Positions 5,350 to 9,996 are shown, counted from the stretch's first letter. The stretch is DNA of 32,000 bases from Promethearchaeota archaeon (GCA_048938295.1 JBHLMI010000014.1:1-32000); one strand, 5' to 3'. Numbers and translations: made by a program. Notes: generated by a model not told the origin, from the sequence alone.

Positions 5350-5375
5350 GCATAGGTAGTGCAGCGATGGTTTCA
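5350..5375 (+). promoter_or_regulatory. Conserved leader element, copy 1
   Basis: GCATAGGTAGTGCAGCGATGGTTTCA is 23/26 identical to 6530-6555 and ends 45 nt before the ATG. Confidence 0.55.
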
Positions 5376-6392: not shown

Positions 6393-6520
6393 TGGATCTG
6401 GCCATCTACTATCGAACCTTTTTTCGGTACAACTTCTTCTTTGTGTATATTTCTGGTGATATTCACTCTGAGGTTTGCATTTTTATGTATGGACCTTGTA
6501 GTGAATGTGGATTCGGACAT

Positions 6521-6555
6521 TGAAACGCTGCATGGGTGGTGCAGCGGTGGTTTCA
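6521..6555 (+). promoter_or_regulatory. Conserved leader element, copy 2, with hairpin potential
   Basis: TGAAA-CGCTGCA-TGGGTGG-TGCAGCG-GTGG-TTTCA forms 12 bp around a 7-nt loop with a 4-nt bulge. Ends 47 nt before ATG 6603. Confidence 0.55.
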
Positions 6556-7839: not shown

Positions 7840-7966
7840 AGCCGGATCTTCAAGGTTCCTTCCCCTCCATTTTGGCACTTCCCGGTCCAAGAAAAATGGG
7901 TGGCAATGGACCTTTTTTAGGACAACGGATTCGGAGTTTACGTTCAAGTTCCTTGAAGACCCGGCT
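7840..7966. repeat. 16-bp inverted repeat enclosing 95 nt
   Basis: AGCCGGATCTTCAAGG (7840-7855) and CCTTGAAGACCCGGCT (7951-7966) are 15/16 complementary. No target-site duplication seen. Confidence 0.6.
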
Positions 7967-8025
7967 GGTCAGTTTCCACGGTCCGTGTCCCTAGTGTCAA
8001 TGTCGTTCCCTAGTAGTAAGTGTGA

Positions 8026-8169
8026 TTAGCGTCGTGATGTGACGATTGCAAAGTTGATTCGATCGCGGGGAGTGCCTCGGGGGTTCTTTGCCCCTGTCAC
8101 AGCGCGTTCTGCGACAGGCATCTCAGTAATTTTCTTCTTTGTGTGTCCGGTTTCTTTCTTATCGACCAT
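8026..8169 (-). CDS. Basic microprotein B, 47 aa, unknown family (not in the ORF track)
   Basis: MVDKKETGHTKKKITEMPVAERAVTGAKNPRGTPRDRINFAIVTSRR*; SD GGAGGT just upstream of the ATG; clear paralog of 8520-8657. Confidence 0.75.
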   Translation of the reverse strand: MVDKKETGHTKKKITEMPVAERAVTGAKNPRGTPRDRINFAIVTSRR

Positions 8170-8227
8170 TTTCTATCAACCTCCTGACCAAGCAGGACAA
8201 TGATGTATAACCCTGAAATTGCCTATT

Positions 8228-8306
8228 ATTCGATGGGAGCTCGTCAGTGCAAAAATTCGATAAAAAATGATAGAGCGAGCCAACTTTTGCACTCCATGGT
8301 GCAAAA
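8228..8306 (-). promoter_or_regulatory. Upstream module of microprotein B
   Basis: 8228-8253 is 19/26 identical to 8742-8767; GTGCAAAA (8247-8254)-N30-TTTTGCAC (8285-8292); a third site GTGCAAAA at 8299-8306. Confidence 0.55.
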
Positions 8307-8519
8307 ATAGAAAAACAATGTTTTTGAAGAAGGGGGGAACCGGGCCCGTACAAACTCCAAACGGAAGGAACCAAGAAGTGTGGACATCCGCTGCCGGAAC
8401 GCTGCTATGCCGATCCTCCGTCAACGGATGGAGAGGTCGTCGGAGGTTCTGCAGGCCCGATCTCGTCGCTGCGAGTTGGATCTGGTGATCGTGTGTTCAC
8501 CATCTGAATTCCTCACAGC

Positions 8520-8657
8520 TTAGCGTTTGCTTAGCGCCAGCATGACTGCATACCGAGTGCGAGGCTTCGCAGTCGGGTGGGGGTTGCGGCAGCCTGCAAC
8601 AAGGCGCTCACAAGCTGACATATCGGCAAGTTTTTTGTGTTTGTAGGATTTGGCCAT
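8520..8657 (-). CDS. Basic microprotein A, 45 aa, unknown family (not in the ORF track)
   Basis: MAKSYKHKKLADMSACERLVAGCRNPHPTAKPRTRYAVMLALSKR*; SD GGAGGA upstream; paralog of 8026-8169. Confidence 0.75.
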   Translation of the reverse strand: MAKSYKHKKLADMSACERLVAGCRNPHPTAKPRTRYAVMLALSKR

Positions 8658-8685
8658 CTCAAAGTCCTCCAATTGTGTTTGTCAC

Positions 8686-8709
8686 CGGGATCCCTGGGAG
8701 GGAACCCCG
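8686..8709 (-). promoter_or_regulatory. GC-rich hairpin in the leader of microprotein A
   Basis: Minus-strand CGGGGTTCCCTCCCAGGGATCCCG gives a 10-bp stem (one G-U, one bulge) with a CCC loop, about 15 nt upstream of the SD. Confidence 0.45.
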
Positions 8710-8741
8710 TTGCAATGAGATATGGGTAAGGATTTGATATG

Positions 8742-8858
8742 AATTGATGGGAACAAATTAGTGCAAATGTCTGCGGTTCAAGCTCAGAAATCAAGAAATT
8801 GTGAACCATTGTATGCAAAATATTGTACTAAAATCCGTCATTTCTCCGTTTTTTGCAC
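8742..8858 (-). promoter_or_regulatory. Upstream module of microprotein A
   Basis: 8742-8767 is homologous to 8228-8253; ATGCAAAA (8813-8820)-N30-TTTTGCAC (8851-8858). Confidence 0.55.
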
Positions 8859-8960
8859 CAGATTGGCATGATTTCTGTTTTGTAGAACCCATTTGAGTGA
8901 TTGCAAACGAGTTATTTGAAAGTTTTTGGGGAGTTTTTCTCATTATCAACCAGCGGTCTT

Positions 8961-9483: not shown

Positions 9484-9558
9484 AAGAGGTTAGTGAAAAG
9501 GAAAGAGCTTTTCCCCGCGAACTAGTTGGATAACAGAACATGCGGAGTTGTGAGTGAT

Positions 9559-9996
9559 ATGAATCCGTTAGAGGCGTTTCCCTTCAAGAACATGCGGACC
9601 ATCGTCGACTTGGTCGAGGAAGGCGAAGTCGATGTGAGTGCGATTCGTTCCGCGACGGGAATGTGCAGTTTTGATTCCACCGAGGTGTTGGATATGCTCA
9701 CTTATCTCACGAGCTTTGGCCGCGTAGAAGCAGAGGAGGGAGGCTGGCTGCTTCAGAAAACAGAGGAGGAAGCCGCGTATGAGCGGTTTCGGAAGAGTTT
9801 CCTTGAGGCAGCTGTGGCAATTCTTTCGAAATTAACAGAAAAAGCAAAGTCGGTGGAACAGCTCTCGAAGGAGACGGGTCTTAAACTGGAAACCGTGGAG
9901 GTGTACTTACCGTTTCTTGCCGACATCACCCGGTTAGGCGTAATTAGCCGGTGTTCGAACGAGTATCCTCTTACATGGTGCCAGAAATCAGAGTAG
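9559..9996 (+). CDS. Hypothetical protein, probably two winged-helix domains
   Basis: Two HTH-like segments (VDVSAIRSATGM..TEVLDMLTYL..GRVE and KSVEQLSKETGLKLETVEVYLPFL..LGVI). ATG 9559 preferred over TTG 9526. Confidence 0.65.
   Translation: MNPLEAFPFKNMRTIVDLVEEGEVDVSAIRSATGMCSFDSTEVLDMLTYLTSFGRVEAEEGGWLLQKTEEEAAYERFRKSFLEAAVAILSKLTEKAKSVEQLSKETGLKLETVEVYLPFLADITRLGVISRCSNEYPLTWCQKSE

Follow-up and report, generated by a model that had tools for sequence, protein, structure and literature searches.

The stretch of DNA analysed here (the window) comprises bases 1-32000 of contig C4 of an Asgard metagenome-assembled genome (MAG) of 2.52 Mb, 66 contigs and 45.8% G+C (G000), whose closest named relative is L010, labelled Hermodarchaeota. 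Upstream of two microprotein genes in this window, mp1 and mp2, we found arrays of 8-bp boxes in alternating orientation. The boxes probably form an operator array of the Lrp type and belong to a promoter cassette that is present three times in the genome. Judged from computational evidence, the predicted operator array is a variant of a known Lrp-type system, with an unusual lattice of asymmetric boxes and a fused double-Lrp protein as candidate binder. Both microprotein genes are on the minus strand, so their upstream regions lie at higher coordinates.

Architecture of the promoter cassette

Box positions were counted from the anchor word TCCCATYGA, taken as position 0 (8238 for mp1 and 8752 for mp2), and the signs < and > give box orientation. 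Both cassettes share the lattice -106 (<), -68 (>), -54 (<) and -16 (>), located upstream of a conserved CTCCCATCGA block and an ATTCATA/AATAATA element. The array is dyad-symmetric, with box starts 38, 14 and 38 bp apart. Its centre is the palindrome TTTTGCAC-N6-GTGCAAAA formed by the boxes at -68 and -54, and one further box stands at N30 on each side; the distance between like-oriented boxes is 52 bp, or about 5 helical turns. The mp2 boxes are more degenerate than those of mp1, with box-like octamers (at most 1 mismatch) at all four offsets (Table 1). The spacing of the lattice is base-pair-exact in the three cassette types and in 7 aligned species. The -106 box of mp2 is also about 100 nt upstream of a divergent flavin-reductase-like gene (Flavin_Reduct domain, E 8e-19).

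An earlier note on this DNA had listed six octamers, all of which were present where it placed them, and had described the two upstream regions as copies of one promoter-plus-gene module. The regions are homologous copies of one promoter cassette over their whole length, with the same lattice offsets. Positions 8228-8253 and 8742-8767 are identical at 19 of 26 positions, the best 26-mer match between both upstream regions and one reached by 1 of 200 shuffles, and 8198-8208 and 8713-8723 agree at 9 of 11. The unit proposed in that note, an N30 pair with a stray third site, was replaced by the four-position dyad-symmetric lattice. Its two N30 pairs are also not equivalent, since they occupy different lattice positions, (-54, -16) in mp1 and (-106, -68) in mp2.

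Downstream of the boxes, each cassette continues with the CTCCCATCGA block, a weak TATA-like heptamer (AATAATA, ATTCATA or ATTGATA) and a leader of 60-90 nt with GGAGG. The heptamer that follows the anchor is located 61 nt (AATAATA, mp1) and 87 nt (ATTCATA, mp2) before the ATG; TATA-like words are most frequent in this genome at 40-69 nt from the start codon. AATAAT, ATTCAT and TTCATA were not enriched at promoter distance in the genome, and TTTTAT, TTTATA and CTTAAA were enriched about 3- to 4-fold. The TATA-like runs once suggested for the spacers held up in part: a T/A-rich run is conserved in the mp1-type spacers, and the mp2 and C11 cassettes lack it. The T-run of the N30 spacer was rejected as a shared TATA, being found in mp1-type spacers only, and the shared TATA-like element is downstream of the proximal box. 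The mp1 ATG is preceded at 41 nt by TTATACA, which was rejected as well; L015-L017 have TTAGGTA instead.

The sequence common to all boxes is the 8-bp core only, with A/T and, in many cases, YCGAY following on its A-rich side, as in GTGCAAAAATTCGAT. The flank varies by lattice position and is shifted by 1 nt in the C11 cassette, and the -68/-54 pair makes up a 22-bp palindrome with a non-conserved N6. A 15-bp extended-site model, with centres 31, 21 and 31 bp apart at whole helical turns, is kept as an idea only, the flanks being inconsistent across lattice positions.

Table 1. Genes, boxes and other elements of the mp1/mp2 locus and of the third cassette
Feature	Position	Strand	Remarks
reg1, fused double Lrp/AsnC-type regulator, 326 aa	5412..6392	+	candidate binder; HTH_AsnC-type E 5e-17
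reg2, fused double Lrp/AsnC-type regulator, 331 aa	6594..7589	+	candidate binder; Pfam, PDB alignment, AlphaFold2 (AF2), Foldseek
mp1 microprotein gene	8026..8169	minus	47 aa, stop included; from the list of open reading frames
GGAGG Shine-Dalgarno-like site of mp1	8180..8184	minus	10 nt before ATG; orthologues GGA(G/A/C)GGTGA
mp1 anchor CTCCCATCGAATAATA	8224..8239	minus	invariant block with TATA-like AATAATA, 61 nt before ATG; 15/15 columns invariant in 7 species
mp1 cassette			-106 none; -68 TTTTGCAC; -54 GTGCAAAA; -16 TTTTGCAC
mp1 box -16	8247-8254	minus	GTGCAAAA on + strand; gene orientation (minus strand) TTTTGCAC; 8/8 columns invariant in 7 species
mp1 box -54	8285-8292	minus	TTTTGCAC on + strand; gene orientation GTGCAAAA; 7/8 columns invariant
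mp1 box -68	8299-8306	minus	GTGCAAAA on + strand; gene orientation TTTTGCAC; 8/8 columns invariant
Conserved structured RNA candidate, ~185 nt	8338..8520	minus	between mp2 stop codon and mp1 boxes
mp2 microprotein gene	8520..8657	minus	45 aa from ATG 8657 (probable start), stop included
mp2 anchor TTCCCATCAATTCATA	8738..8753	minus	with TATA-like ATTCATA; 95 nt before ATG
mp2 cassette			-106 GTGCAAAA; -68 TTTTGCAT; -54 GTTCACAA; -16 ATTTGCAC
mp2 box -16	8761-8768	minus	GTGCAAAT on + strand; gene orientation ATTTGCAC; variant kept in L010, L011, L009
mp2 lattice position -54, degenerate	8799-8806	minus	GTTCACAA; most orthologues GTTCAAAA
mp2 box -68	8813-8820	minus	ATGCAAAA on + strand; gene orientation TTTTGCAT
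mp2 box -106	8851-8858	minus	TTTTGCAC on + strand; gene orientation GTGCAAAA
Third promoter cassette region	contig C11:6412-6560 (L025:1913-2316)		variant boxes TTTTACAC / GTGCAAAA / TGTTGCAC

Frequency of the boxes in the genome

A chance origin of the box arrangement is excluded. The heptamers TGCAAAA/TTTTGCA occur 488 times in the genome (both strands, 0.19 per kb) and 8 times in the window, 5 of them inside the 660 bp of the mp1/mp2 upstream stretch. When the genome scan proposed by the earlier note was run, TGCAAAA-N30-TTTTGCA was found twice in 2.52 Mb, both times at mp1/mp2, with about 0.02 expected per fixed gap, and the count in 100 dinucleotide-preserving shuffles of the window was 0.00. 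Clusters of three [AT]TTTGCA[CT] boxes were likewise restricted to two places in the genome, the mp1 and mp2 arrays. Allowing one mismatch in each octamer raised the N30 count to 3, no higher than that of some other gaps, so that at this stringency the signal is the whole architecture and not the pair; the third case is a genuine third cassette. Because the mp1 and mp2 copies are paralogous they do not count as independent events, and independence is supplied by the orthologous loci.

Conservation of the array across species

The mp2-mp1 tandem pair was found in 8 further loci of different species, all belonging to one GTDB genus, with NCBI labels varying between Hermodarchaeota and Promethearchaeota. 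The mp1 pattern (-68/-54/-16) was present in 8/8 orthologous loci with identical spacing, except for a 1-nt insertion in L014. Among the 7 aligned species, 23/24 columns of the mp1 boxes and 15/15 columns of the anchor were invariant, compared with 0/6 in the N6 spacer, 7/30 in the N30 spacer and 0/30 in the 30 nt upstream. As a yardstick for this invariance, approximately 40% of the codons in the genes adjoining the mp1 array carried synonymous changes. Lack of conservation upstream of orthologous microproteins would have spoken against the earlier proposal; the boxes are conserved there, and positions kept between diverged spacers indicate strong constraint. The mp2 boxes turn over more, with recurring position-specific variants across species, namely ATTTGCAC at -16, GTTCAAAA at -54 and TTTTGCAT at -68.

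The three-box pattern TTTTGCAC-N6-GTGCAAA-N31-TTTTGCAC gave 7 exact matches in 596 Gb of species-representative prokaryote genomes (185,579 species), every one of them in an Asgard MAG and upstream of an mp-family microprotein gene. One of the 7, L024, precedes a divergent 57-aa microprotein and is without CTCCCATCGA but keeps ATTCATA at the same distance. Metagenome contigs yielded 6 matches, of which 4 were mp1 loci.

These data bear on whether the boxes could lack a regulatory function and be the neutral remains of a recent duplication or of a small mobile element bearing terminal inverted repeats. Paralogy of the two copies alone would account for their shared words, and similar octamer palindromes occur in an unrelated metagenome repeat family. 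However, the mp1 and mp2 proteins are only about 35% identical, which points to an old duplication, yet the boxes are exact; the footprint is kept in species whose spacers have diverged, synteny of the location holds in all of them, and the genome has only three copies (mp1, mp2 and C11), all at promoter distance from genes. A neutral origin is thus hardly credible.

The third cassette

The third cassette, on contig C11 at 6412-6471, consists of TTTTACAC-N6-GTGCAAAA-N30-TGTTGCAC-N8-CTCCCGTTGATTGATA and has a leader resembling that of mp2 (cacaattggatgg...ATG). It precedes an unrelated open reading frame (ORF) of 86 aa, not a microprotein gene, whose product had no match in Pfam. A 313-aa paralogue of reg1 and reg2 is arranged head-to-head with the cassette. 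In L033-L035 this arrangement was kept: the variant boxes and the divergent regulator are the same, and the spacers have diverged. One more locus, seen as a gene map only, shows the arrangement too. In the orthologous cassette L034:1960-1985 the -54 box is directly followed by its mirror image, giving GTGCAAAATTTTGCAAAA, a perfect palindrome like those of Ss-LrpB (see below).

Apart from these cassettes, TTTTGCA-N8-TGCAAAA occurs at only one place in the genome, C8:2752-2773 (L026), as the palindrome TTTTGCAG-N6-TTGCAAAA. A further paralogue of the fused Lrp type starts about 135 nt downstream of it, at C8:2912.

Fused Lrp/AsnC-type proteins as candidate binders

Both reg1 and reg2 contain an AsnC-type helix-turn-helix (HTH) at residues 4-45 (Pfam E 5e-17 and 6e-16, respectively) and a weaker second HTH at about 146-190. 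The orthologues of reg1 are syntenic. Residues 3-139 of reg2 align to complete Lrp/AsnC chains in the PDB, and its AF2 model is [HTH-RAM]x2 with a predicted local distance difference test score (pLDDT) of 72.5. An AsnC-type HTH followed by a RAM (beta-alpha-beta-beta-alpha-beta) domain is thus present, and the modelled topology has HTH-RAM twice. In Foldseek, the halves of reg2 match Lrp, AsnC and FL11. The fused HTH-RAM-HTH-RAM architecture is shared with NirDL and AhbAB (PDB 4ch7). Those proteins are enzymes of heme d1 and heme biosynthesis, whereas reg1/reg2 are only 13-14% identical to them and have paralogues of their own type, 10 in this genome, as regulator families have. With the AhbA/AhbB family models, which have cut-offs of 140 and 125 bits, reg1/reg2 reached 14.6 and 12 bits, so that they do not score as siroheme decarboxylases. 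Since these scores are an order of magnitude below the cut-offs and the halves match Lrp-type proteins, reg1 and reg2 are treated here as regulators, a fused Lrp fold not being proof of DNA binding. To our knowledge, structures of covalently fused double-Lrp proteins have so far been obtained only for enzymes (NirDL).

All box-bearing loci with sufficient flanking sequence (the window, L010, L011, L013, L015, L016, L017 and L024) have a fused Lrp-type gene at a distance of no more than 3 kb. In L013, L016, L017 and L024 this gene follows the array directly in the same orientation, and at C11 it diverges from the array. Among the neighbouring genes, only the fused regulators recur at all box-bearing loci, the others and their orientations being rearranged (flavin reductase, C25 peptidase). 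The suggestion that the adjacent double-HTH regulators are the natural candidates is strengthened by this linkage, by the head-to-head paralogue at C11 and by the C8 palindrome upstream of a paralogue.

A 26-nt block, GCATRGGTRGTGCAGCGRTGGTTTCA, was observed upstream of both reg1 (5350-5375) and reg2 (6530-6555) with three A/G differences. It is an element distinct from the TTTTGCAC boxes.

Predicted mode of regulation and comparison with known systems

Lrp-family proteins bind arrays of regularly spaced sites cooperatively. In the mechanism we propose, the fused [HTH-RAM]x2 proteins of Lrp/AsnC type encoded beside each cassette (here reg1 and/or reg2) would bind the boxes cooperatively, and binding would couple expression of both microprotein genes to a ligand sensed by the RAM-like domains. 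Activation through recruitment of TBP/TFB is slightly favoured over repression, because all the boxes are upstream of a TATA-like element unlike the TTTTAT, TTTATA and CTTAAA words preferred by the genome. Repression by wrapping may be the alternative.

The nearest counterpart is Ss-LrpB of Sulfolobus solfataricus. Its own control region contains three regularly spaced palindromic boxes of 15 bp (consensus TTGCAAAATTTGCAA), a dimer of this 1x[HTH-RAM] protein binds each of them, and about 100 bp of DNA is wrapped (Peeters et al., PMC1802622). As in that system, an Lrp/AsnC-type regulator is encoded at the present locus and several regularly spaced boxes are found in the control region. The words TGCAAAA and TTTGCA of the present boxes are contained in the consensus, and the array spans about 100 bp, which is compatible with wrapping. 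Unlike those of Ss-LrpB, the present boxes are 8-bp cores, asymmetric and of alternating orientation on a 38/14/38-bp lattice; the box spacing of Ss-LrpB is roughly 40 bp. The candidate binder also differs in being a covalently fused 2x[HTH-RAM] protein, and the targets are microprotein genes instead of the regulator's own gene.

A model for the activation reading is provided by Ptr2 of Methanocaldococcus jannaschii, which was reportedly shown by Ouhammouch and colleagues in 2003 to activate in vitro by recruiting TBP. Ptr2 is likewise an Lrp-family protein with paired sites immediately upstream of the TFB recognition element and TATA box (BRE/TATA) of a weak promoter. Ptr2 has two sites of different consensus, whereas the present cassettes have three or four, and activation is here suggested by position only. 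Arrays of E. coli Lrp at ilvIH and pap comprise multiple degenerate sites in helical phase, where a cooperative oligomer bends or wraps the DNA. In contrast to the present system, those arrays serve sigma-70 promoters and are bound by an octamer or hexadecamer of single-module subunits at 15-bp sites phased about 30-33 bp apart.

Evidence against the operator reading and other possible binders

Several observations weigh against an Lrp-type operator bound by the fused proteins. The core shared by the boxes is 8 bp long and non-palindromic, unlike the 13-15-bp semi-palindrome typical of Lrp dimers, and in the central palindrome the TGCA cores are about 12-13 bp apart, which is wider than an Ss-LrpB box. 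No boxes were found upstream of reg1 or reg2 in the window at up to 1 mismatch; autoregulation, which is common in the Lrp/AsnC family, is therefore not evident there. The best Foldseek match of full-length reg2 is the enzyme NirDL, a siroheme decarboxylase (template modelling score about 0.5, 14% identity), so a fused Lrp fold is no guarantee of DNA binding. In some species the mp2 boxes have degenerated or disappeared, and L016 has lost most of them. The mp2-mp1 loci are confined to a single GTDB genus, which makes the comparative depth modest, and 2 of the 6 metagenome matches of the three-box pattern come from a palindromic repeat that is unrelated.

That repeat, on metagenome contigs L028 and L031 (GTGCAAAAATAGAGCGGAGTGCAACGGAGCGG TTTTTTGCAC...), has the same octamers and stands as a tandem duplicate upstream of a gene resembling family-4 uracil-DNA glycosylase. 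It is probably an element of another organism similar to repetitive extragenic palindromic (REP) sequences.

The operator could be real and its binder a protein other than the neighbouring fused Lrp-type ones, such as another winged-helix protein, a general chromatin protein, or the basic microproteins themselves in feedback. The lack of boxes before reg1 and reg2 and the enzyme as nearest full-length structure would both fit this possibility, as would the choice open among 10 paralogues and the microproteins, which are very basic and always co-located. We nevertheless consider it not very probable. Despite rearranged neighbours, no gene family other than the fused regulators occurs at all box-bearing loci, and the C11 cassette has a paralogous regulator but no microprotein gene. 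The microprotein model, although of low confidence (pLDDT 61, too poor for a fold search), shows two short helices and no recognisable DNA-binding fold. A 156-aa gene resembling a winged HTH protein, at 9526-9996, scored only below the Pfam thresholds, and the genes flanking the cassettes differ among loci.

A candidate structured RNA between mp2 and the mp1 boxes

Upstream of the mp1 boxes a conserved structured RNA candidate was detected (Table 1). RNAalifold gave 45 pairs in 6 helices, with 12 compensatory pairs compared to 5.3 +/- 1.7 in shuffles (0/500 reached 12), and 89% of cells were paired vs 36-46% when the partner was slid. The strand is fixed by the many G-U pairs. The RNA candidate has one copy per genome and was present in 9/15 searched genomes of the genus, G000 included. 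No Rfam match was obtained in the whole window at gathering thresholds, and a search of 7950-8950 at E up to 10 returned chance-level matches only.

The 5' part of the RNA candidate is covered by metatranscriptome contigs of relatives. These contigs are short, come from one wetland run (X6) and cover 8006-8170 and 8401-8622, with nothing over 8171-8400 or 8640-8900, which is no evidence that the boxes are untranscribed. As the contigs stop inside coding sequence they are unable to place the transcription start, whose predicted position is downstream of the boxes.

Given that mp2, the structured RNA and mp1 are co-oriented and that the three mp1 boxes are mutually complementary, the inverted octamers might function at the RNA level, or by forming a DNA cruciform. 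In that case the -54 box would pair with -68 (6-nt loop) or with -16 (30-nt loop), as an attenuator-like switch of read-through from mp2 and the structured RNA into mp1. Palindromic double changes at mp2 -68/-54 were indeed seen in L015 (TTTTGCAT/ATGCAAAA) and L016 (TCTTGAAT/ATTCAAAA). In contrast, one pair with GTGCAAAA is lost in each of the C11 variants, TTTTACAC and TGTTGCAC, uncompensated in 4 orthologous loci, and most mp2 variants (GTTCAAAA opposite TTTTGCAT/C) are uncompensated as well, so pairing was not kept by compensatory changes in C11 or in most mp2 variants. The mp1 boxes, being invariant, are uninformative on this point. Furthermore, the mp2 and C11 boxes are upstream of the promoter-like element with no co-oriented upstream gene to transcribe them, and the base-pair-exact 30-nt 'loop' and anchor distance fit a protein on a helical lattice, not a hairpin loop. 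We therefore regard a role in RNA or cruciform as very unlikely.

The microprotein genes

The mp1 and mp2 ORFs are real coding sequences, as judged from the excess of synonymous over non-synonymous codon differences between orthologues (14 vs 6 over 34 codons, 16 vs 6, and 20 vs 4). The longest mp2 ORF opens at TTG 8672. The true start is probably ATG 8657, since the orthologues begin with MAKS... and GGAGG is located 8 nt before this ATG. The microprotein family is small, Asgard-only and made up of 3 or 4 subfamilies; no match was found in Pfam, NCBIfam or the ESM Atlas.

It is conceivable, if unlikely, that the locus forms a self-contained module which only a single Asgard lineage possesses. 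A fused double-Lrp regulator and a four-box dyad operator would then control two basic microproteins and the ~185-nt structured RNA, which together would form an unknown small ribonucleoprotein with the microproteins as RNA partners. The 8-bp asymmetric boxes would in that case represent a novel way of binding, with one HTH of each pseudo-dimeric polypeptide acting specifically and the other non-specifically.

Two more paralogues of the family were located at C65:243-377 (minus) and C57:6850-6999 (plus), of the subtype ...GCRNPHPTP...SRRGSKW. Both have ordinary promoters (TTTATATT on C65) without boxes, and no fused regulator was found near them on their 18- and 22-kb contigs. The C57 paralogue is directly downstream of the end of a TnpB-like ORF (zinc-finger motif CxxC...CxxC). 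A partial anchor-like word upstream of a C28 paralogue had the wrong arrangement and was taken as chance. No tRNA genes were detected in the window.

Significance

Among prokaryotes, the Asgard archaea are most closely related to eukaryotes, and hardly any of them have been cultured. A literature search found no published, experimentally defined transcription-factor binding site for them, and the mp1/mp2 locus is among the clearest testable regulator-operator predictions in this group. The target is short and sharply defined, consisting of three to four 8-bp boxes with base-pair-exact spacing in three naturally tuned cassette variants. The set of candidate binders is small (reg1, reg2 and the C11 paralogue), so recombinant proteins and synthetic DNA would suffice and the organism need not be grown. 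The locus could settle whether fused double-Lrp proteins serve as DNA-binding regulators, and through its regulation it offers access to an uncharacterised microprotein family specific to Asgard archaea and to the neighbouring structured RNA.

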